This document shows positions 8,151 through 57,627 of a stretch of 57,627 nt of DNA, piece by piece. The stretch lies in IMG/VR virus record IMGVR_UViG_3300045988_128491. One strand, 5' to 3'. A model generated the notes under the pieces. It ran no database searches and was not told the origin of the DNA. It saw only the letters and a list, made by a program, of their open reading frames with translations. The translations under genes were made by a program, and so were the position numbers. The stretch's first letter is position 1, and every line of letters begins with the position of its first letter. The DNA is from a virus.

Positions 8151-8254
8151 TCCCTAACACCCCAGTCTTCCATGACAACCTTTGCCAGTGTTCTGCCAAT
8201 CTCAAACAGGAACCCTGTTCCTACTACAGCAAAAAGCATAAATACATAAGTCAT
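8129..8254 (-). CDS. small hydrophobic peptide (41 aa, one transmembrane segment)
   Basis: RBS AAGGAGGAAAATAA then ATG. ATGA overlap with the upstream stop. MTYVFMLFAVVGTGFLFEIGRTLAKVVMEDWGVREWLTQRQ. Confidence 0.4.
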   Translation of the reverse strand: MTYVFMLFAVVGTGFLFEIGRTLAKVVMEDWGVREWLTQRQ

Positions 8255-8712
8255 TTATTTTCCTCCTTAAGTTCTGCTACTCCCTCTGCTACCATCACAG
8301 CTTTACCAGCTATGCAGTTACCGCAGTCAACTTTTTGGCAGTCGATGTTTTTAAACAAACAGTCCTTACACTCATCGGCTTCACCTGCTGTATCTCTATA
8401 AGGGCAGGCTCCTGGACAAACTGAACAAATTTTAATTTCCTTGCCGCAGTGTTCACATACACCTAGCAGTCTTTCGTCACAATGCCCATGAGTTTCTTTG
8501 CCGCAGTGATAGCACTCCTCGTCGTACCAAGTCAGCTGATGGTAATCTCCCTCAAGCCATTCGGTAATAGCCTGCTCGCAGGTTTTGTTGTCGCAAGTGC
8601 CATCTTCATGGGCGTTGCAAGCAATACACCGATTTCCTGATACATTTATCAGGAATTTAGCTAATCGTTCATCAGGTAAGTTCTTTAACCAGTTTCTATT
8701 TGTCATAATCAT
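8251..8712 (-). CDS. cysteine-rich protein (multiple CxxC pairs, possible zinc ribbons)
   Basis: 153 aa from the internal ATG. At least 20 Cys in CxxC and CxC patterns. N-terminus MIMTNRNWLKNLPDERLAKFL is shared with two small upstream ORFs. Confidence 0.55.
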   Translation of the reverse strand: MIMTNRNWLKNLPDERLAKFLINVSGNRCIACNAHEDGTCDNKTCEQAITEWLEGDYHQLTWYDEECYHCGKETHGHCDERLLGVCEHCGKEIKICSVCPGACPYRDTAGEADECKDCLFKNIDCQKVDCGNCIAGKAVMVAEGVAELKEENK

Positions 8713-8819
8713 TTTATCCACCTAAAAGCCTCTCTAAGCCAAAGAAATATAATCAATCCCAGTAGTACGATTATCAGCCCAACTCCTGCTAGCGCTATGA
8801 ATATAAGTGCATTAAGCAT
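8709..8819 (-). CDS. small hydrophobic peptide (36 aa, one transmembrane segment)
   Basis: RBS GGAGGAAAATCA then ATG. Stop overlaps the next start (ATGA). MLNALIFIALAGVGLIIVLLGLIIFLWLREAFRWIK. Confidence 0.4.
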   Translation of the reverse strand: MLNALIFIALAGVGLIIVLLGLIIFLWLREAFRWIK

Positions 8820-8850
8820 TGATTTTCCTCCTCTACATCAACAAGAATAG

Positions 8851-9105
8851 TTACAGCATTTCTTTTCCGGTCTTTTGTCTAATCCTGGAAAACAAGTCGC
8901 ATATATCGTCTTTGTTGTTAAAAAGGCATTCCTGACAATGCCTACCTATAGACGTACAGTAATTTACCAAAATATCAACTGCTGTAAGTGCTGCTATGTC
9001 AGCTGAGTGAGCATCCCAATAGCCTTTGCGCACTACCTGCTTTGCGAAATAACTAAATGTGTTCTCTAGCTGTCTCATTAATATATCATCGTTCATTTTT
9101 CTCAT
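8851..9105 (-). CDS. hypothetical protein
   Basis: ORF. The internal ATG (MRKMNDD) is favoured over the TTG at 9153. Confidence 0.45.
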   Translation of the reverse strand: MRKMNDDILMRQLENTFSYFAKQVVRKGYWDAHSADIAALTAVDILVNYCTSIGRHCQECLFNNKDDICDLFSRIRQKTGKEML

Positions 9106-9250
9106 TCCCTTTCCAAACTCTATTCCATGCACATGCCTCTGGGAGTTGCACAACCTCTATGAATATATCTGCCAGCCTAGTATCATCTACCTGCTCTAGG
9201 ACTCCATTAATTTTCTTAATTGCGTACTCTCTGTTAGTCATTATCTTCAT
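9086..9250 (-). CDS. small protein (54 aa) with an MKIMTNREY N-terminus
   Basis: RBS CAGGAG then ATG. ATGA-type overlaps on both sides. N-terminus paralogous to the 8251-8712 and 9234-9401 ORFs. Confidence 0.35.
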   Translation of the reverse strand: MKIMTNREYAIKKINGVLEQVDDTRLADIFIEVVQLPEACAWNRVWKGNEKNER

Positions 9251-9401
9251 GCTCCTGTCTTAGCCATTGAGTTATTCCCTTAGAACATATATTTTCACTA
9301 CAAAATCGAACATTTCTATACACGCACACAGCGCAAAAATCTAGTATTTCTGCTAATTCCTCATCTGACAGGTTTTCGAGCCATTCTCTATTAGTCATCA
9401 T
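9234..9401 (-). CDS. small Cys-containing protein (55 aa) with an MMTNREWLENLSDEELAEIL N-terminus
   Basis: RBS GGGAGTGTGAGGA then ATG. CAVC and CSENIC motifs. Confidence 0.35.
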   Translation of the reverse strand: MMTNREWLENLSDEELAEILDFCAVCVYRNVRFCSENICSKGITQWLRQEHEDND

Positions 9402-9469: not shown

Positions 9470-9823
9470 TCAACTTCTTAACAATATAGCTTGAGCAGCA
9501 TTGGACAGCATAGAATTGGAAAGAATATCACTTTTTTGTCTTATAAAAGAATTTGCAAGTTTTACTATATCTTCACAGGGAGTGATATACTTACTGCTAT
9601 TCCATAAAATTTTTCCATCATCGGTTATATCATATACTACGAACCTGTACTCATTCACACCTACTTTCAAAGCTAAATCAACTATAACTTTTCGCTCCAT
9701 CCTATTCTGCGTACCGACCAGAACACTTGATAAACACTTGCGTACAGAGGTTTCGTAATCCAAAACTGTGACAATGCCAATGTAGTTTTTATCCATAATC
9801 GGGTTATAAACAACTTTTTCCAT
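9470..9823 (-). CDS. hypothetical protein
   Basis: 117-aa ORF. RBS GAGGAGGTATAGTA then ATG. Confidence 0.55.
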   Translation of the reverse strand: MEKVVYNPIMDKNYIGIVTVLDYETSVRKCLSSVLVGTQNRMERKVIVDLALKVGVNEYRFVVYDITDDGKILWNSSKYITPCEDIVKLANSFIRQKSDILSNSMLSNAAQAILLRS

Positions 9824-9876: not shown

Positions 9877-10074
9877 TTATGCCCCGTGTGCAATCGCATA
9901 TATCACTATCGTCGGTGCACCATTCACAGGCATCTGGAAATTGTATAACCTCACGGTTAATTCTTCTCCGTTAATGACATTGTTTATAGAATTTCTCATT
10001 ACGCATATCCACAATGTAGTAGACAAGGCGTTTACTATAGCCATTCCTATATATCTCGCAGCAGCCATTTCCAT
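9877..10074 (-). CDS. doubtful small ORF
   Basis: No convincing RBS. Confidence 0.2.
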   Translation of the reverse strand: MEMAAARYIGMAIVNALSTTLWICVMRNSINNVINGEELTVRLYNFQMPVNGAPTIVIYAIAHGA

Positions 10075-10349
10075 GCCTGCGCAAGAGACAATAAAAAAAA
10101 CAGCAATATGTCTGACACCACGATAAATTTAAAATGCCTATCATATAATGTGAGAAATTTCTCTTTCGTGACGGATGTATTTACAACAGCCATTATTCCT
10201 ACCTTTAGCATCTCAGAAATTGCCAATATATTAGAATCTATAAGCTGCATGAAATGTATTTGTATTACGGGTACGGTCATTGCCATTGCCATTGCAAAAG
10301 AGAATACTACTGGGCCGACCAACAACCATCTTCTTTGCTTACTGTTCAT
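10047..10349 (-). CDS. membrane protein (3 predicted transmembrane segments), last gene of the paralog operon
   Basis: Hydrophobic segments. Start overlaps the upstream stop. Confidence 0.5.
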   Translation of the reverse strand: MNSKQRRWLLVGPVVFSFAMAMAMTVPVIQIHFMQLIDSNILAISEMLKVGIMAVVNTSVTKEKFLTLYDRHFKFIVVSDILLFFLLSLAQAWKWLLRDI

Positions 10350-10749
10350 TTATTGCCTCTAACATTTTCTCAGTCAGAGCAATAGCTTCTTCCTTAGTCT
10401 TGCAGACAATCCCCATCTTATAACATTCTATATCAAAACAGCTGTTGCCCCAGTAATAATAGTAATGCCTGTCCTCAGGTAGGACAGAAATACGTGGCAC
10501 GTAATATTTCTCACCTTCCCGTGGTTTCCACGGCAGTTTGACAATTCTAATATCACCCATCAAGATACCTCTCAATACTATTGCTGTGGCCGTTTCCCAT
10601 TTAACGCCACCATCTGATGTTTCAAGGCAATTGTTCTCAGTGAATCGATAATAGTTCTGATAATCACCCTGAGTATCAGAACTAATCTTGAAAGGCTCTC
10701 CGAGTTCCACTCCGAGTATTTTTGACACTTCCGCTATGTGATTAACCAT
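10339..10749 (-). CDS. paralog D of a tandem family (KLPWKP motif protein, 136 aa)
   Basis: Shares LGVELGE.F...RFTEN...KLPWKP...Y...G(I/L)V..TKEEAIALTEKML with paralogs A to C. Confidence 0.65.
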   Translation of the reverse strand: MVNHIAEVSKILGVELGEPFKISSDTQGDYQNYYRFTENNCLETSDGGVKWETATAIVLRGILMGDIRIVKLPWKPREGEKYYVPRISVLPEDRHYYYYWGNSCFDIECYKMGIVCKTKEEAIALTEKMLEAINEQ

Positions 10750-11189
10750 TATTCTCCTCCTGTTTTGCTACCGTCTGCAAACCTCTTCTTCGCTACATCC
10801 AGCATTTCCTCCGCTAACTCAATAGCCTCTCTGCTAGTCCTGTAAACCAACCCCTGCTGATAAGAACTTTTATCACCCTTGGAACCAGTCCAAAAAAGCT
10901 TTAAATATTTGCCACTATTTACAACGGATGGCATGTAATAAGTATCACCGTGAGATGGTTCCCAAGGGAGTTTAATAATCTGAAGTGCTCCAGTTATAAG
11001 ACCTTTCCATATCCAAGCTGCCGCACTATGCCAAGAAGTTCTATTAACTGATTCTTTTAGCCCATTTTCAGTAAATTTAAGGTATGTCTCTGAGCAATAG
11101 GTATAACAACCTGAACTCCCCTTAAAGGAGAAAACCTCGTCAAGCTCTACTCCGAGCAAAACTGCTACACTTGACATTTTATTAGCCAT
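10749..11189 (-). CDS. paralog C of the tandem family (146 aa)
   Basis: Same family motifs (LGVELDEVF, KLPWEP, GLVYRTSREAIELAEEML). Confidence 0.65.
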   Translation of the reverse strand: MANKMSSVAVLLGVELDEVFSFKGSSGCYTYCSETYLKFTENGLKESVNRTSWHSAAAWIWKGLITGALQIIKLPWEPSHGDTYYMPSVVNSGKYLKLFWTGSKGDKSSYQQGLVYRTSREAIELAEEMLDVAKKRFADGSKTGGE

Positions 11190-11601
11190 TCTTTTTCACC
11201 TCCTGTACCAGTGTTTTTTCTGCTAGTTCCAGCATCTTCTTTGCTAGTGCTGCAGCTTCATCTGGGGTACTGAAAACTAGCCCGTGTTCGAGTCTATACA
11301 AATCAAGCTCACTATCTCGCCAAACCCAAATGCCAAACATTGCTGTAGGGTCAACGTGTGGCACATAGTATTGCTCCCCATCATCAGGCTTCCACGGAAA
11401 TTTGACAACTGTTACCTTACCATTCAAGAGTTCTCTAAGAATTGAATGCTCAGCAAATGTCCATGATGATGAGCTGTCAAGCAGTCTTTGTAGCCCATCT
11501 TCTGTGAACCTAAAAAGTCCTTGACATTTCTCTATTCGGAACTCTTCTCTCAGCTCCAGGCCTAACAGCTTTGCTACACCTTTCATATAGTTACTCATCA
11601 T
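11182..11601 (-). CDS. paralog B of the tandem family (139 aa)
   Basis: Same motifs (LGLELREEF, KFPWKP, GLVFSTPDEAAALAKKMLELAE...KKNG). Confidence 0.65.
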   Translation of the reverse strand: MMSNYMKGVAKLLGLELREEFRIEKCQGLFRFTEDGLQRLLDSSSSWTFAEHSILRELLNGKVTVVKFPWKPDDGEQYYVPHVDPTAMFGIWVWRDSELDLYRLEHGLVFSTPDEAAALAKKMLELAEKTLVQEVKKNG

Positions 11602-12007
11602 TTGCCTCCTGTGCCACAGCCAGCAACTTCTTCGTCAGTGCAATGGCCTCCTCCTTAGTTCTAAAGACAAGGCCATGATTGAATCTATATATATCAACTC
11701 CATAACCCGTCCATGAACAGCGTCCCCACATAATCGGAGATGAGGGGTCCGAATAACAATACCGATCGCCAATGGCGGGTTTCCATGGTAACTTACGAAT
11801 TGATAAATTGCCGTACAAAAGACCAAGCAATCTGTTATCGTTTGCAACTATCCAAGTATCCTTATCACCAATAGGCGCGGATACTTGTAGGTCGTTGTCT
11901 GAAAATCTAAATACGCAATCTTTTAACGAGGGGTCCCCGTCAACCTGAAAAACTTCTCCTACTTCCACTCCGAGCAGCTTAGCTACTTCCACCATTTTGT
12001 TATCCAT
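11591..12007 (-). CDS. paralog A of the tandem family (138 aa)
   Basis: Same motifs (LGVEVGEVF, KLPWKP, GLVFRTKEEAIALTKKLL). Confidence 0.65.
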   Translation of the reverse strand: MDNKMVEVAKLLGVEVGEVFQVDGDPSLKDCVFRFSDNDLQVSAPIGDKDTWIVANDNRLLGLLYGNLSIRKLPWKPAIGDRYCYSDPSSPIMWGRCSWTGYGVDIYRFNHGLVFRTKEEAIALTKKLLAVAQEANDE

Positions 12008-12392
12008 TCTTTTTCATCTCCTGCGTCAGTATCTCTGCTAGTTTCAGCATCTTCTTTAAATAAACAGCATATTCCTGACCGAATACTGTTTGCATAAATA
12101 CCCTATAAGTGTCAGTAATTGCAGCATTATACGCTGCATTGTGATCGGTGCCTCGTGCCAAGAAGTCTGTCAGTGTATAGGTGATATTTTTATTCACCTC
12201 ATATACAAAGTCACCCAGGGACCGTCTATAGTTAATTCGGCCCTTCAAGCTAACTTTCCCTTCCTTTCTGATTATTTCCACCCTTTTGGTATTTTCTACA
12301 TCTAACTCGGTATTTTCTTTATCGGTGATAGTGAATAATCTAAAGAGTGTTTCAAAGGCTTCATTGTCTAGTCGATTTACATAATAACTCAT
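12000..12392 (-). CDS. family-associated protein E (130 aa), divergent, sharing only the C-terminal tail KKMLKLAEILTQEMKKNG with paralog B
   Basis: C-terminal 18 aa nearly identical to the paralog B C-terminus. Translationally coupled to MazG and paralog A. Confidence 0.55.
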   Translation of the reverse strand: MSYYVNRLDNEAFETLFRLFTITDKENTELDVENTKRVEIIRKEGKVSLKGRINYRRSLGDFVYEVNKNITYTLTDFLARGTDHNAAYNAAITDTYRVFMQTVFGQEYAVYLKKMLKLAEILTQEMKKNG

Positions 12393-12721
12393 TACTTTGC
12401 ACCTCTTTCCTTTTTTAACTTTTTCATATCTTCTATTCTGCAGGCCCAGCGTCTGTACTTAGGATAGTCGTCAATGTTTATTATGCGTTCCCACGCACTG
12501 TCAGTGAACCCTAGACGCAGTACGCAAAGCAAGTCCTGGGCTTCCTCACTGAAAGCTCTTAAAGCCTGTCCAGCAGTGACCGGGGTAGGATTCCCTGACA
12601 TTCCAAGGGCCCTTATGAGCTTCAGTGCCGCTTGACTCAACTCAGAGGCTTCTTCTGCCACTTGCTCCAGCATATCTCGTGATACTAATTCCTCGCGTAC
12701 ATACTTTGCATATTCGTTCAT
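12392..12721 (-). CDS. MazG-like nucleotide pyrophosphohydrolase domain protein
   Basis: 109 aa with LEQVAEEASELSQA (EExxE metal-binding motif) and a second acidic cluster. Confidence 0.55.
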   Translation of the reverse strand: MNEYAKYVREELVSRDMLEQVAEEASELSQAALKLIRALGMSGNPTPVTAGQALRAFSEEAQDLLCVLRLGFTDSAWERIINIDDYPKYRRWACRIEDMKKLKKERGAK

Positions 12722-12723
12722 TT

Positions 12724-12925: not shown

Positions 12926-13327
12926 TCACCCCTGCTCGAACAGCTCTAACTGCTTATTATCCTGAATCATGTAGTCCACCCCTATATAATCCAGCAGGTC
13001 TTTCAGCCCTAGCTGATTAATACAGTAGTCGTATATTTTAGGGTGTGTTTTGGCCATAAGCTGATAACGATTGAGGCCTTTGTCGTGATGTACACCGATT
13101 GGACAAAACATACAGCCTGTTCTATCCATCTTGGTTGTAATCAGTACACCTTTCTTATCTCTGACAATATCTCCATATACGCTAGGTATTTTCAGGTCAT
13201 TATCAAGAATATATTGCAATACATCCTGCTGAGTCCAAAATGACAAAGGCATACTTTTGCCTTTAGAAAAAACATTGCAACCATTTTGTAACCAAGCCCG
13301 TTGCCTTAGTTGGGATTCTACGGCCAT
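12926..13327 (-). CDS. C-terminal fragment of a PAPS-reductase-family protein (frame B)
   Basis: Frame stays open upstream to the TGA inside the A9 run of the preceding ORF. GCMFCPIGVHH motif. Confidence 0.5.
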   Translation of the reverse strand: MAVESQLRQRAWLQNGCNVFSKGKSMPLSFWTQQDVLQYILDNDLKIPSVYGDIVRDKKGVLITTKMDRTGCMFCPIGVHHDKGLNRYQLMAKTHPKIYDYCINQLGLKDLLDYIGVDYMIQDNKQLELFEQG

Positions 13328-13349
13328 AGTACCAATTAAAAAACCACAT

Positions 13350-13889
13350 TTATGTTGTTTTTTGTATGCTATAAAAGGCTTTTTTTTTCATAAATTCACA
13401 GCATTTTGGGCTTATTTTGACTGGTGCTTCAAGTAAAAATTTCCACTTCAAGTAATGCGAACTTCTATACTCACTAAGTGTACCATTGTAATTTTTCCCA
13501 TTGATACAGGCAATCGCCCACTCCTTACCTTCTCTTGCTTTCTCAATTTTATTAGCTACTTCTTTACTAGGATATACCCAGCCATATTCCCGAATTACCT
13601 CCCTGAAATTTATTGTTGGCCGTATAATTTCTACATTTCCAATCTGCTTTACATGCTCCTTGACTTCTGGATATTCTAACCCTGTATCACAGTAAACACC
13701 TTTTACATCAGGAAATATGCTTCTTGTTAAATGCAAGAGTACCGTGCTGTCTTTGCCACCTGAGAAGCTAACAACTACATTGCCGTCATAGTGCTCATAA
13801 AATTCAGCAATACGTACCTTGCTCATAGTTATCTTGTCCGCTAATGGCATTTGCAAAAGCTGTTTTAGTTCTTTGTTTGTATGCATCAT
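13350..13889 (-). CDS. PP-loop ATPase of the PAPS reductase / 3'-phosphoadenosine 5'-phosphosulfate sulfotransferase family, N-terminal part
   Basis: VVSFSGGKDSTVLLHL PP-loop. Ends just after a T9 homopolymer (13380-13388), where a 1-nt frameshift would fuse it to 12926-13327. Confidence 0.65.
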   Translation of the reverse strand: MMHTNKELKQLLQMPLADKITMSKVRIAEFYEHYDGNVVVSFSGGKDSTVLLHLTRSIFPDVKGVYCDTGLEYPEVKEHVKQIGNVEIIRPTINFREVIREYGWVYPSKEVANKIEKAREGKEWAIACINGKNYNGTLSEYRSSHYLKWKFLLEAPVKISPKCCEFMKKKAFYSIQKTT

Positions 13890-13943
13890 TATCCTTCCTT
13901 ATATTTTATGCCTATTCGTTGCGAACATACTTTGCATATTCTT

Positions 13944-14177
13944 TCATTTTTTCCACCAGTCTCCTCTACTCTTAAACCATATATTAGTTACCTTAATTCT
14001 TGATGCTGTCCAGGTACCGGCCTCCGCCTGGCGGTCCTTTTCAGCAATCACACTGTCGAGGCTTGCACGCCATGCAAGGTATTTTTCACATCTTGCATGG
14101 CAGCCTACTTTCCTACTTTTGCAGTCCTTGCATGGACTTATTTTCCCGCTGAACCGTAAAGGTGAATCCTGTTTCAT
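13944..14177 (-). CDS. small Cys4 zinc-finger protein
   Basis: SPCKDCKSRKVGCHARCEK. 77 aa. Overlaps the upstream gene by 65 nt. Confidence 0.4.
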   Translation of the reverse strand: MKQDSPLRFSGKISPCKDCKSRKVGCHARCEKYLAWRASLDSVIAEKDRQAEAGTWTASRIKVTNIWFKSRGDWWKK

Positions 14178-21011: not shown

Positions 21012-21074
21012 TAAATCACCTCCTTTAGCACCCACATAGCAACCACCCCCTTTGTCCACAAATGATTGTGCGGT

Positions 21075-21090
21075 GTTCTAAATTTTCACA
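21075..21090. promoter_or_regulatory. operator-like motif copy 1 (GTTCTAAATTTTCACA)
   Basis: One of four copies of TTCTAAA(A/T)(C/T)TTCACA. Lies 64 bp upstream of the Cro-like gene. Confidence 0.35.
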
Positions 21091-21103
21091 TATGCAGTAA
21101 AAG

Positions 21104-21397: not shown

Positions 21398-21432
21398 TTT
21401 TAGTTCCCTACTTTCACAAATCTTTTTATATA

Positions 21433-21448
21433 GTTCTAAAATTTCACA
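21433..21448. promoter_or_regulatory. operator-like motif copy 2 (GTTCTAAAATTTCACA)
   Basis: Upstream of gene 21104-21397. The 28 bp around it repeat the 21075 region with 2-3 mismatches. Confidence 0.35.
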
Positions 21449-21463
21449 TATGTAGTAAAAAAA

Positions 21464-22405: not shown

Positions 22406-22469
22406 AATAAAAAACCTCCATACTAGATACTAGATATTAATTTGTAACATCTTTTTTGTTACTACATAT

Positions 22470-22498
22470 AGTATATGTGATTTTACTGAACTTGTAAA
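22470..22498 (-). promoter_or_regulatory. early promoter P1 (minus strand): -35 TTTACA, 17-nt spacer, -10 TATACT
   Basis: Lies inside a 35-bp sequence duplicated at 23324-23358. Confidence 0.45.
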
Positions 22499-22540
22499 GT
22501 GTTTTATGTGATTTTTAAGAACTTTATTTTTAAATAATTT

Positions 22541-22765
22541 TTATTCCTCCTCTACTATTTCTGTAGCACCTATAGAGGTGATGAAAGCTGACATTTCATC
22601 AGACATTATCTCCCCCTCAACAACCTCGGCTTTTATGATGGCTGGGTTATCCCAGTGACATCCTCTCCATGTAGGGTTGATCTTTTCCCAGTCAAAGACC
22701 TTTGTAAATGTGGAATATTTACCGCCACACCATTCAGTATAACTTTCATATTCAAACCTTTTCAT
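22541..22765 (-). CDS. hypothetical small protein
   Basis: 74 aa. AAGGAG RBS. Confidence 0.5.
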   Translation of the reverse strand: MKRFEYESYTEWCGGKYSTFTKVFDWEKINPTWRGCHWDNPAIIKAEVVEGEIMSDEMSAFITSIGATEIVEEE

Positions 22766-23288: not shown

Positions 23289-23328
23289 TTCAGTGTATAA
23301 CACTTTTGTTGTATCTCTTTTGTTATAT

Positions 23329-23357
23329 AGTATAAGTGATTTTACTGAACTTGTAAA
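23329..23357 (-). promoter_or_regulatory. early promoter P2 (minus strand): -35 TTTACA, 17-nt spacer, -10 TATACT. Duplicate of P1.
   Basis: 35-bp repeat atatagtata(a/t)gtgattttactgaacttgtaaagt. Confidence 0.45.
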
Positions 23358-23365
23358 GTCTTTTT

Positions 23366-23381
23366 TGTGAAGTTTTAGAAC
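23366..23381. promoter_or_regulatory. operator-like motif copy 4 (inverted: TGTGAAGTTTTAGAAC) between divergent promoters
   Basis: Perfect 16-bp inverted repeat of copy 3. Sits between the P2 -35 and the cI promoter -35. Confidence 0.4.
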
Positions 23382-23385
23382 AATA

Positions 23386-23415
23386 TTTACAAGTGACATT
23401 TTTTCACATTATAAT
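23386..23415 (+). promoter_or_regulatory. repressor promoter (plus strand): -35 TTTACA, 18-nt spacer, -10 TATAAT
   Basis: Seen directly upstream of the CI-like gene. Confidence 0.4.
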
Positions 23416-23493
23416 AAGTATATAGCAAAAGTGTTATTACATTATTATATATACAAAAGTGTGATATACCTATTATAAGGGAGAGTGGATAAT

Positions 23494-23934
23494 GTGAAAA
23501 CGAAAGATAAACTACGGAAAATGAGAATGGATAGAGGTCTTTCTCAGCAACAAGTAGCTGATTGTCTTGGCTTAGACCGGAGCACTTATGTAAAGTATGA
23601 GCTAGGCGGCAGCATAAAACTACACGTGGACGACTTAGCTAAATTCTATAATGTCTCAACTGACTACCTTTTGACCGACACGCCCTATATGCAGGCATAC
23701 AAACCGGGAGAAGCCCAGCTCCCCGATAACCTTGTCCCTATTGTAGAGTTGGTAAAGGATTTATTTAAAGATAGACCTGAGATAGTAAAGCTGTTTACTG
23801 GGGGAAGAATAAAAGATGTATTGTCTAATAGTAAGACAGCCAAAAAAAGCCTTACTGATATGACAGAGCAGGAAAAAGAGCATTTTAGAAGTGCACTCTT
23901 GCTTGGATTGAAAGCAGCAGGCTTTACTCTATAA
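23494..23934 (+). CDS. CI-like phage repressor (XRE-family HTH, N-terminal)
   Basis: MRMDRGLSQQQVADCLGLDRSTYVKYELG. GTG start 8 nt after AAGGGAGAG (an alternative GTG at 23485). Plus strand, co-oriented with int. Confidence 0.7.
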   Translation: MKTKDKLRKMRMDRGLSQQQVADCLGLDRSTYVKYELGGSIKLHVDDLAKFYNVSTDYLLTDTPYMQAYKPGEAQLPDNLVPIVELVKDLFKDRPEIVKLFTGGRIKDVLSNSKTAKKSLTDMTEQEKEHFRSALLLGLKAAGFTL

Positions 23935-24389: not shown

Positions 24390-25319
24390 ATGACCGCTAA
24401 AGAATGTGACAAGCTCACACAGCTAACTGAAATTACGGATTTAAAAAAGTATTGGGAGCATGAAGCTTTGGATTTTACCCCCTGGCTTGCCAAGAAGAAA
24501 AATATTGAGTTACTGTCAAAAGCTACAAACCTTAATATTGAGGTGATAGAGACAGAATCCTCCGTTGGTAATTTTTCCGCTGATATTCTAGCCAAGGATC
24601 TGGACAATAACAGAACAATTATTATAGAGAATCAACTAGAGCCTACAGACCATACACACCTTGGGCAAATCATTACATATTTAGCAGGTAAAGAGGCAAG
24701 TATTGTTATTTGGGTAACTAAAAAGGCGCGAGATGAACACATAGCAGCCGTGAACTGGCTTAATGCTCATACGGATGATAGCACTGCATTCTTCTTATGT
24801 GAAACCAAGCTGTATAAAATTGGCGACTCTGCAGCTGCTGTAAATTTTGATGTTATCTGCAAACCTAATGAGTGGGAAAAGGAATCAAGGAGCTCTCTTA
24901 GCACAAAAGAAAAGTATTATTATGATTATTGGTCAGCATTTATTAATTATGCATACAATGTAAAAGAATTCAGCAGTGAGTTTAGGAAAATTACACCGTA
25001 TAAACAGGCTGATTCTCAATTTTATTCCGGTGTAACAGGGTGCTCTATTATCCCCCGCCTGCTACAGAACGGTAAACTGCAGGTAAATTTTAGAATATGG
25101 AATGATAAAAACCTATACCACACTTTAGTTGCAAATAAAGAAGCAATTGAAAAAGCTGTGAGAGTAAATTATGAATGGGCAGAACTTCCTGAGAATAAAG
25201 CAAGCAGGATTTTTATAGAGAAAACATTCAAAAATGCCAAGAGCGAAGAGGCCTTTGCTTGGCTGGCTGAGAACGTTTTAAAAATGAAGAGAACTTTCCA
25301 CAACTATTGCGAGGTGTGA
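24390..25319 (+). CDS. PD-(D/E)XK-nuclease-like protein resembling the DUF4268 family
   Basis: HEALDFTPWLAKK...GNFSADILAKDLDNNRTIIIENQLEPTDHTHLGQIITYLAG (D...E-x-Q nuclease core). 309 aa. Immediately upstream of int and co-oriented with it. Confidence 0.55.
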   Translation: MTAKECDKLTQLTEITDLKKYWEHEALDFTPWLAKKKNIELLSKATNLNIEVIETESSVGNFSADILAKDLDNNRTIIIENQLEPTDHTHLGQIITYLAGKEASIVIWVTKKARDEHIAAVNWLNAHTDDSTAFFLCETKLYKIGDSAAAVNFDVICKPNEWEKESRSSLSTKEKYYYDYWSAFINYAYNVKEFSSEFRKITPYKQADSQFYSGVTGCSIIPRLLQNGKLQVNFRIWNDKNLYHTLVANKEAIEKAVRVNYEWAELPENKASRIFIEKTFKNAKSEEAFAWLAENVLKMKRTFHNYCEV

Positions 25320-25322
25320 TAT

Positions 25323-26531
25323 GTGTCTAAAATAAAAAAAGTTAGAACTAGAAAAAGAGGCAAATCTTACAGTTATATTTTTGAAGCTGGGAAAAAGCCT
25401 GATGGGAAGAGAAATGTCGTAGAAAAAGGAGGCTTTGACACAGAAGAAAAGGCCTATAATGCAGGTATAGAGGCTCTTAATGCTTACCTGCATGGAAACA
25501 TAGCTATCTCCTCAGATAGAATACTTTTTACAGACTATATGGAGCAGTGGCTTGAAAAAGTACACAAATCTGCTGTAGCCCCTCATGTCTATGATATGCA
25601 GGTAAGCTGCTATAGGAATCGTATAGCACCAGCATTCCAAGGCATGTACTTACAGGACATAAAACCTGCGCACATAGATGCATGGTTGAGAATATTAATT
25701 AAAGAAGGGTTAGCTAAGAACTCAATATTAAGCTATAAATCCATACTGCATAGTGCTCTAAATTATGCGGTATATCCTGCTGAATTTATCTCCGTCAACC
25801 CTGCGAGTTTAGTTAAAATACCAAATAATGTAGCTACAAACATTGTTGAGAGAAAAATCATTTCACCTGAAACATATAAAAAGATTATCAATGATAAGCA
25901 GCTAAACCCTGCTGAGAGGCTTGTTGCCATCATTGCTTATCATACAGGTATGAGAATTGCCGAAATCTTAGGCTTAACATGGGAGTGCATTGACTTAGAT
26001 AGAGGACTCATAAAGGTAGCTTATCAGGTGATACGATACAAAGGACAGAGGTACTTCACATCAAAATTGAAAAGGCTTTCCAGCTACAGGGATATTTACA
26101 TAGACCAGGATTTAGTGGATTTGCTGAAAATGTGGCATGACAAGCAGCTAAAATACACAAGTCCTTTTAGCATTATAAATTATGTTGAAGGTATTCCAGG
26201 TAAGATACACATACAGACACAGAAATATTTACCTGAAAATATCATTCCTGTACACTTTGTCTGCCTAAGCAATAAAGGTAAATTGGTATCTTACAGCAAT
26301 GTAGCGGGAAAGCTAAAAAAATATAATCTAAATACCCATTCATTTAGACATACTCATGCAACGATGTTAGTGGAGTCTGGTGCGCCATTAAAGGGTATCA
26401 CAAGCAGATTAGGACATAAAAATGTAGGCCTAACACAAGACATTTATACTCATGCTTCTGAGGCTATTCAGCAGAACACAAGAGATAGTTTTCAGGAGGT
26501 TTTAAATAAAAATAATGCAGACAAAGACTAA
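25323..26531 (+). CDS. int: tyrosine recombinase / phage integrase
   Basis: N-terminal SAM-like region. C-terminal catalytic R...HxxR...Y region (HSFRHTHATML...GHKNVGLTQDIYTHAS). GTG start with GAGGTG RBS. Confidence 0.85.
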   Translation: MSKIKKVRTRKRGKSYSYIFEAGKKPDGKRNVVEKGGFDTEEKAYNAGIEALNAYLHGNIAISSDRILFTDYMEQWLEKVHKSAVAPHVYDMQVSCYRNRIAPAFQGMYLQDIKPAHIDAWLRILIKEGLAKNSILSYKSILHSALNYAVYPAEFISVNPASLVKIPNNVATNIVERKIISPETYKKIINDKQLNPAERLVAIIAYHTGMRIAEILGLTWECIDLDRGLIKVAYQVIRYKGQRYFTSKLKRLSSYRDIYIDQDLVDLLKMWHDKQLKYTSPFSIINYVEGIPGKIHIQTQKYLPENIIPVHFVCLSNKGKLVSYSNVAGKLKKYNLNTHSFRHTHATMLVESGAPLKGITSRLGHKNVGLTQDIYTHASEAIQQNTRDSFQEVLNKNNADKD

Positions 26532-57476: not shown

Positions 57477-57537
57477 ATAGTATTTTAGTAACTTAGTGGA
57501 GTCAGGTGTTACCTGCACAAAGCTCTCCAAGATAAAA

Positions 57538-57627
57538 GGTGCTAAACAAATATTCACTCTACTCTCACCACCTGCTAAACAAATATTCACTCTACTCTCA
57601 CCACCTGCTAAACAAATATTCACTCTA
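57538..57627. repeat. 33-bp tandem direct repeat, about 2.7 copies, identical to the units at 1-87
   Basis: gctaaacaaatattca, then two full units, then ctcta. Confidence 0.9.

Follow-up and report, generated by a model that had tools for sequence, protein, structure and literature searches.

The 57,627-nt IMG/VR virus record IMGVR_UViG_3300045988_128491, which we refer to as the window and to which all coordinates apply, carries four consecutive minus-strand genes, here called A to D, that form an array of divergent paralogs. Comparison with other phages argues that A-D are old subfamilies reshuffled at one slot and not recent duplicates, since every one of the four matches orthologs in other phages at 73-98% identity, as against 34-38% between the paralogs. 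These figures replace the "rapidly diversifying tandem paralogs" of an earlier reading made from the letters alone (the sequence-only reading). The protein family is new, and the variable early accessory slot that it occupies is a known kind of locus. As a tentative explanation, to which we give slightly less than an even chance, A-D would be early accessory host-interaction factors whose variable segments set the target and whose arrays broaden the range of targets, in counter-defence or in takeover of the host.

A widespread family of two-lobed proteins

A (11591..12007, 138 aa, identical to P0003, which was found on 37 contigs), B (11182..11601, 139 aa from its first ATG), C (10749..11189, 146 aa, with orthologs at 88-100% identity) and D (10339..10749, 136 aa, with orthologs at 78-93% identity) can be aligned along their whole length, and 27 columns of the alignment are invariant. 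Even the weakest pair, A/C, reaches 79.7 bits and E 6e-25 in BLASTP, a value that holds for that one comparison, and the similarity among A-D is therefore far beyond chance. Indeed, the sequence-only reading had already taken these four genes of 136-146 aa for paralogs, and every family motif that it listed is found in the alignment, so that the shared motifs are genuine and not spurious; its estimate of low pairwise identity also stands, although the measured range of 34-40% is slightly higher than the 25-35% it gave.

The family is large. A profile of A-D recovered 1,309 clusters at 90% identity, and an exhaustive HMMER scan recovered 2,831 clusters at 50% identity, 1,112 of these at E <= 1e-10. 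Nearly all members are stand-alone proteins of 125-145 aa, and they are small, soluble, mildly acidic and two-lobed. Pfam held no credible match for A-D or for any of 44 family members, and NCBIfam held none for 64 diverse members. In PHROGs there were weak and partial matches to families of unknown function (E 2.7e-5 for B and 0.012 for A); two such families, 18768 and 13281, show a weak likeness that is confined to the C-terminal half, or C-lobe, of the A-D family, and no function has been assigned to either. The earlier reading, which did not recognise the family, agrees with these searches. The INPHARED phage collection gave no nucleotide or protein match, and a literature search found nothing specific on this kind of locus. 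The lone homolog in a cultured organism is WP_013379588.1 of Eubacterium callanderi DSM 3468, encoded on the 39.8-kb element p1_EUCAMar, and it offers a cultured entry point to the family.

A confident AlphaFold model of A (predicted local distance difference test score 87) has two lobes, with a predicted order of helix and three strands, followed by helix, three strands, helix and a long C-terminal helix. No DNA-binding fold of the oligonucleotide-binding (OB) or helix-turn-helix (HTH) type was seen in this model. A structure search of BFVD returned solely uncharacterised phage proteins, including stand-alone single-lobe ones. An internal duplication relating the N-lobe to the C-lobe was ruled out (hhalign probability 2.5%).

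Conserved and variable segments alternate along the protein. Between paralogs, identity is 48-67% over residues 1-21, 14-33% over residues 22-51, 35-50% over residues 52-85, 15-27% over residues 86-111 and 53-68% over residues 112-130, and the same alternation of three conserved and two hypervariable segments (22-51 and 86-111) is found family-wide. Near-invariant aromatic and charged residues include W52, K72, W75, W99, T117 and E120.

Within subfamily D, relative to two other alleles, every difference falls within codons 2-47 and comprises 14-20 nonsynonymous as against 2-3 synonymous codons. Against the allele of a related locus, L097, there are 14 nonsynonymous and 2 synonymous codon differences in a hypervariable block at codons 22-47 (10609..10686), which corresponds to hairpins of the N-lobe; from codon 51 to codon 136, and in the RnlB gene downstream, the nucleotide sequence is the same as in the compared alleles. 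These differences reject omega <= 0.3 (P <= 1.4e-3). For A-C the ratio of nonsynonymous to synonymous substitution rates (dN/dS) is 0.2-0.5, as compared to 0.03 for PolA and 0.11-0.17 for PcfJ. The rapid diversification proposed earlier is therefore reduced to a local excess of amino-acid change, in the N-lobe of D only, that is not significantly above neutral. Mutagenesis by a diversity-generating retroelement was excluded as the cause of the variation in D, because no repeat of the variable block occurs anywhere in the window and no reverse transcriptase was matched in Pfam or PHROGs among the 37 window ORFs scanned, a set that leaves out most ORFs of the structural region.

Gene ends, junctions and related phages

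The array is adjacent and tightly packed, running on the minus strand from a MazG-like gene (12392..12721, 109 aa) through a gene called E (12000..12392, 130 aa) and A-D to a hydrophobic ORF (10349..10047, 100 aa). An AGGAG-type Shine-Dalgarno sequence precedes every array start. Starts overlap the preceding stops by 1 nt (MazG/E and C/D), by 8 nt (E/A and B/C) or by 11 nt (A/B and D with the next gene); the 8-11-nt overlaps of the sequence-only reading are thus present, and the ATGA overlaps that it described with them are not, as the 1-nt overlaps read TAATG. The true start of B is probably its second ATG, at 11598, judging from the family MxNxM start, the 8-nt overlap and the normal Shine-Dalgarno spacing that it yields; the resulting length of 138 aa is also that of B in gene-caller output on identical contigs.

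We compared the window with 80 other family loci from IMG/VR, numbered L0xx, of which 58 have a single copy of the family; two copies are present in 14 and three to five in 8. Several share a near-identical backbone with the window: PolA is 99% and PcfJ 97-99% identical in L093 and L013, and the RnlB gene is 100% identical in L093, L097 and L098. Yet in these phages the slot holds differing sets of two to five members. Where the window has E-A-B-C-D, L093 has a relative of A (A', 61%) and D (85%), L097 has a relative of B (B', 48%), an 85-aa gene, C (90%) and D (90%), L098 has five members and L013 has an array that includes fragments.

The breaks between blocks of nucleotide homology fall at, or within, the conserved gene ends. 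For example, by blastn L093 retains 210 nt of the 5' end of A and resumes 12 nt upstream of D, the blocks in L097 and L013 start at 11242/11243, and some other loci match only the junction 12057..11949. The conserved 5' end of a family gene, consisting of the ribosome-binding site (RBS), the start and the first ~20 codons, lies at 11942..12011 with further copies at 11124-11193 and 10684-10753, and the three copies are 60-70% identical over 70 nt (repeat family D1/D2). Chimeras between paralogs also occur, with P0001 joining the N-terminal part of B to the C-terminal part of D and P0005 joining B and C, and the C-lobe is found as an extra repeat in L028, L057 and L064.

Gene E extends this picture to a protein outside the family. 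Its body shows no relation to A-D (hhalign probability 0.1%) and the gene matches phrog_34465 (E 1.6e-5), whereas its last 18-40 residues are B-like (21/40 identical, BLASTP E 1e-6); E as a divergent member of the family was ruled out on these grounds. At the DNA level a 24-nt junction element in the E tail (12034..12057, repeat family D2) and one in the B tail (11219..11242, where homology blocks to other phages start) are identical at 23 of 24 nt. The similarity continues through the RBS and start of the following family gene, and the final QE(M/V)KKNG* is therefore the ribosome-binding region of the next gene read in the upstream frame. Homologs of E form 21 clusters, and the LKKMLKLAE insert is present in part of these and missing from the others, which shows that it was gained or lost by recombination. 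Both the shared tail on an unrelated body and the recombination within the array were anticipated by the sequence-only reading, and the junction sequence, the variable insert, the chimeras and the mosaic blocks bear them out.

Related phages thus gain, lose, swap and fuse family cassettes. Their breakpoints and shared junctions are consistent with homologous recombination acting on the conserved gene ends, 5' (RBS and first ~20 codons) as well as 3' (the EEAIALxxKML helix), and the family tail of the unrelated gene E was grafted on by the same process. In the proteins themselves, the conserved segments would form a scaffold and the variable segments would choose the host molecule that is bound, so that several paralogs might widen the range of host targets handled, be they defence proteins, their signals or targets of takeover.

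The phage, its early operon and neighbouring genes

The window is a complete ~57.6-kb temperate phage of a human-gut Clostridia host. A terminal direct repeat (17-90 = 57540-57613, in the end regions 17-123 and 57507-57613), which contains ~2.2 copies of the 33-nt tandem unit TGCTAAACAAATATTCACTCTACTCTCACCACC, indicates a circularly closed assembly. Completeness and the temperate lifestyle follow from this repeat, an integrase (25323-26531), a CI-like HTH repressor (23485-23934), identical proteins on ~57-kb contigs from many human-gut metagenomes and relatives integrated beside bacterial genes in contigs of 75-192 kb (L098, 75 kb; L093, 192 kb). The window PolA is ~53% identical to PolA of Clostridia phages; a host search in GTDB representative genomes gave no match. 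A gene for a 309-aa DUF4268-domain protein (24390-25319, plus strand), which immediately precedes the integrase on the strand of the lysogeny side, may be a prophage-expressed moron or defence gene.

To the left of the integrase and repressor lie the replication genes, which encode an exonuclease, a Gp2.5-like single-stranded DNA-binding protein (SSB), PolA, a PcfJ-like protein, a VapE-type primase-helicase, an SNF2 helicase and a ParB-like nuclease. On the strand of these genes, promoter-like sites are concentrated beside the repressor, at 22.5-23.5 kb, and within the array no promoter or terminator signal rose above the shuffled background, which suggests that the array lies in the middle of a long early (replication-side) operon. 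Its position downstream of the replication genes of a temperate phage agrees with the early region assigned to it previously. Two pairs of direct repeats in the switch region (22466-22568 / 23325-23427, 103 nt, 76%; 21048-21102 / 21406-21460, 55 nt, 75%) coincide in part with the strongest of the promoter-like sites, and they may have arisen as duplicated promoter/operator modules.

On other backbones the family has RecE/RecT, DnaD-like, DnaC-like and RusA-like genes on its upstream side and the late regulator downstream, and its neighbours there include small Zn-ribbon (Lar-like) proteins, DNA methyltransferases and an MmcB-like nuclease. In p1_EUCAMar of E. callanderi, for example, the family member is followed by one small gene, a methyltransferase and then a Lar-family restriction-alleviation gene.

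Immediately downstream of D, the hydrophobic ORF that had been described as a membrane protein is indeed hydrophobic, with hydropathy peaks, but it is only the front part of a frameshifted gene (9880..10349, minus strand) that is split into 100-aa and ~63-aa ORFs and that encodes one 156-aa membrane protein in L093, L097 and L098. By tblastn the L093 protein is divided between two frames of the window, with 10349..10080 read in frame -2 and 10116..9880 in frame -1, and the frameshift is near a T8 run (~10100). As identical contigs from several metagenomes show the same split, the frameshift is probably real and not an assembly error. An orphan homolog of the RnlB antitoxin (9470..9823, minus strand, 117 aa; PF15933 at E 5.8e-11 and 43 bits, where the gathering cutoff is 27) follows ~220 nt downstream of the 100-aa ORF and ~500 nt downstream of D. 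No ORF of the size of an RnlA/LsoA-type toxin lies beside it, its neighbours being 55-156 aa, and it may be a Dmd-like counter-defence gene against toxins of that type. Further along, a second set of small paralogs (8251-8721, 9086-9250 and 9234-9401, minus strand) is Cys-rich, starts with M(M)TNREWL..L.DEELA and matches phrog_2999 (unknown function); their gene starts share a 49-nt repeat (8219-8267 / 8784-8832).

Upstream, the 109-aa protein matches phrog_4856 "nucleoside triphosphate pyrophosphohydrolase" at E 1e-4 and phrog_2245 at E 0.036, and acidic EExxE/EExxD motifs are visible in it (EQVAEEASEL and FSEEAQDLL). It had no Pfam match at E <= 1 and no PDB sequence match. The PHROG matches and the motifs hint weakly at an all-alpha, MazG-like nucleoside triphosphate pyrophosphohydrolase. 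The coupling of this gene to the array described earlier stands, in the form of the 1-nt overlap, and the MazG label depends on the PHROG match and the motifs. The coupling is a trait of this phage lineage and not of the family: a MazG-like gene lies within 8 kb of the family in 6 of the 80 other loci, and a family-wide link was rejected for MazG, the membrane protein and RnlB alike (6, 2 and 2 of the 80, respectively).

A 36-nt copy of the start of the MazG-like gene (12688-12723, minus strand), 89% identical and encoding MKEYAKYVRNE*, is found at 13912-13949 (minus strand), upstream of a PAPS-reductase gene, and where relatives lack the PAPS cassette, this place is taken by the MazG-like gene. 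The copy looks like the scar of a cassette insertion by recombination at a gene start. The PAPS-reductase-like gene itself (12926-13889, minus strand) is split into 179-aa and 133-aa ORFs in the window and intact at 318-319 aa in L010 and L093.

The MazG-like module and the family are also connected through DUF3310. The C-lobe of the family is fused to DUF3310 in 24 of 118 DUF3310 clusters, with a conserved 203-aa architecture, and in P0336-P0338 DUF3310 is fused to the window's type of MazG-like domain; further examples of C-lobe or MazG-like fusions are found among P0305-P0324 and at L018:698-1351. The three modules are thus linked by domain fusion. In L093 and L098 the MazG-like gene and the array have a DUF3310 gene beside them, and at other loci DUF3310 genes are 3-4.6 kb off and not adjacent. 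The window has no DUF3310 gene, and A-D have no DUF3310 domain. In L093, on a near-identical backbone, a 205-aa pentapeptide-repeat protein (L093:4851-5468) is followed by the DUF3310 protein, and both are absent from the window.

Possible roles and known systems

An anti-defence or host-takeover role for A-D is plausible, because it fits the mosaic slot, the RnlB-like, Lar-like and methyltransferase neighbours and the DUF3310 fusion. In particular, a variable gene set at a fixed slot is circumstantial evidence for anti-defence. A more specific form of this proposal, in which the proteins are phage-borne binder scaffolds whose residues 22-51 and 86-111 set the host defence protein or immune signal that is neutralised, is possible but somewhat unlikely. 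Several points weigh against a host-interaction role of either kind. Most phages, 58 of the 80 loci, carry a single copy, and the strong retention of the conserved segments would suit a housekeeping function equally well. The neighbourhood argues weakly, since almost every small accessory gene of Firmicutes phages sits in this region. The nonsynonymous excess in D, drawn from three alleles, does not significantly exceed neutrality (P 0.15-0.24), and the role of every family member is deduced from sequence and context.

The connections to MazG-like and DUF3310 proteins raise the alternative, which we judge unlikely, that the family is nucleotide-linked, with members acting as sponges of immune signals or as partners or regulators of MazG-like and DUF3310 (gp1.7-like kinase) enzymes and paralogs differing in ligand. 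Translational coupling in the window lineage, the domain fusions, the adjacent DUF3310 genes of L093 and L098 and the near-invariant aromatic and charged residues listed above speak for this alternative; however, MazG linkage is rare in the other loci, DUF3310 genes at other loci are distant, structural matches were below significance and not reproducible, and no nucleotide-binding motif could be recognised. One particular sponge, a remote member of DUF2829 (Tad2/AcrIIA7) that binds glyco-cyclic ADP-ribose (gcADPR) or a cyclic nucleotide, was suggested by the by-eye order helix-G-strand-W ... W-x-x-S-x-x-D, which resembles the DUF2829 consensus, validated against Tad2 chains in the PDB. None of 44 family members matched PF11195 at E <= 1, hhalign stayed below 1% for A3 and its C-terminal part against a shallow four-sequence profile (this consensus plus PDB fragments), and a model of the C-lobe by itself failed to recover Tad2; these results speak against homology to DUF2829, and the sponge in question is the least probable of the explanations considered here.

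It is also rather improbable that the family is a housekeeping accessory of phage replication or recombination, such as a replisome or recombinase cofactor with redundant or partner-specific paralogs. In favour of this, the family gene is always on the replication side (downstream of PolA, exonuclease and SSB here, and of RecE/RecT, DnaD, DnaC or RusA modules elsewhere), usually in one copy and with strongly conserved core residues. But the replication systems that accompany it are of at least two unrelated kinds, so that no single partner enzyme can be assigned to it, its copy number and identity vary although the replication genes are 97-99% identical, its dN/dS is at least 10-fold that of PolA, and the model contains no OB or HTH fold. 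Expression in the lysogen as prophage-encoded defence or superinfection exclusion has very little probability in our estimate: the phage is temperate, its relatives are integrated and variable cassettes are typical of prophage defence hotspots too, but the array, with its overlapping frames, lies mid-operon where the lytic replication genes are, at a long distance from the lysogeny module (23.4-26.5 kb), and shows no promoter signal of its own above background.

Few counter-defence or takeover proteins are known in Clostridia phages. If A-D are indeed binder scaffolds that neutralise host defences, temperate Clostridia phages would assemble multi-paralog arrays via conserved gene ends and so cover several host defences, and the family would be a new and very widespread counter-defence class with a new fold. 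The family is common in phages of the human gut, numbers ~2,800 clusters at 50% identity and has no Pfam model, NCBIfam model or structural relative, and any function found for it would annotate thousands of genes. The variable segments, the shuffled arrays and the DUF3310 fusion make it a concrete candidate for counter-defence and takeover screens.

Among known proteins, those with DUF3310 are one point of comparison. The lactococcal phage protein SaV, which has a DUF3310 domain, is an early toxic protein that triggers AbiV (PMC8306868). For DUF3310 a link to the nucleotide kinase T7 gp1.7 has been drawn, and overexpression screens with mycobacteriophage genes found the domain to be strongly cytotoxic (PMC10700055). 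Like the family, SaV and T7 gp1.7 are early and small and belong to the same accessory region, and DUF3310 is the domain joined to the C-lobe in the 24 fused clusters. This fusion involves the C-lobe only, and the paralogs of the window lack the domain. The DUF2829 proteins (the anti-Thoeris sponge Tad2 and AcrIIA7) share no sequence or profile similarity with A-D. The latter exceed them by ~50 residues, with a long C-terminal helix and a second lobe, and a structural match between the two was not reproducible.

As a locus, the array invites comparison with anti-defence loci of variable content, such as anti-CRISPR loci and the anti-Gabija locus of SPbeta-like phages, which likewise consist of small early genes in sets that differ by phage. 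Anti-defence loci are known to be recognisable by gene sets that change from one related phage to the next (bioRxiv 10.1101/2023.05.01.538930), and close relatives of the window do carry differing gene sets at one slot. The likeness may extend to candidate counter-defence genes nearby, namely the putative RnlB-like antitoxin near the array and the Lar-like and methyltransferase genes at other family loci; no aca-type regulator was recognised here. In contrast to those loci, which hold unrelated genes, the cassettes here are paralogs of one family with shared conserved segments.

In mosaic temperate phages, both lambdoid and dairy, recombination at linker sequences on gene boundaries is established. 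The array resembles these phages in that exchange takes place where short conserved sequences mark the ends of genes, and the duplicated 36-nt start that flanks the PAPS-reductase cassette is a further likeness. It differs from them in that conserved coding sequence, at the ends of paralogous genes, takes the part of the linkers, and recombination therefore also yields in-frame chimeric proteins. The locus thus illustrates how the coding ends of paralogs may serve as recombination linkers that create such chimeras, and it is this combination, an array of paralogs with conserved and variable segments whose coding ends act as linkers, that is new here.

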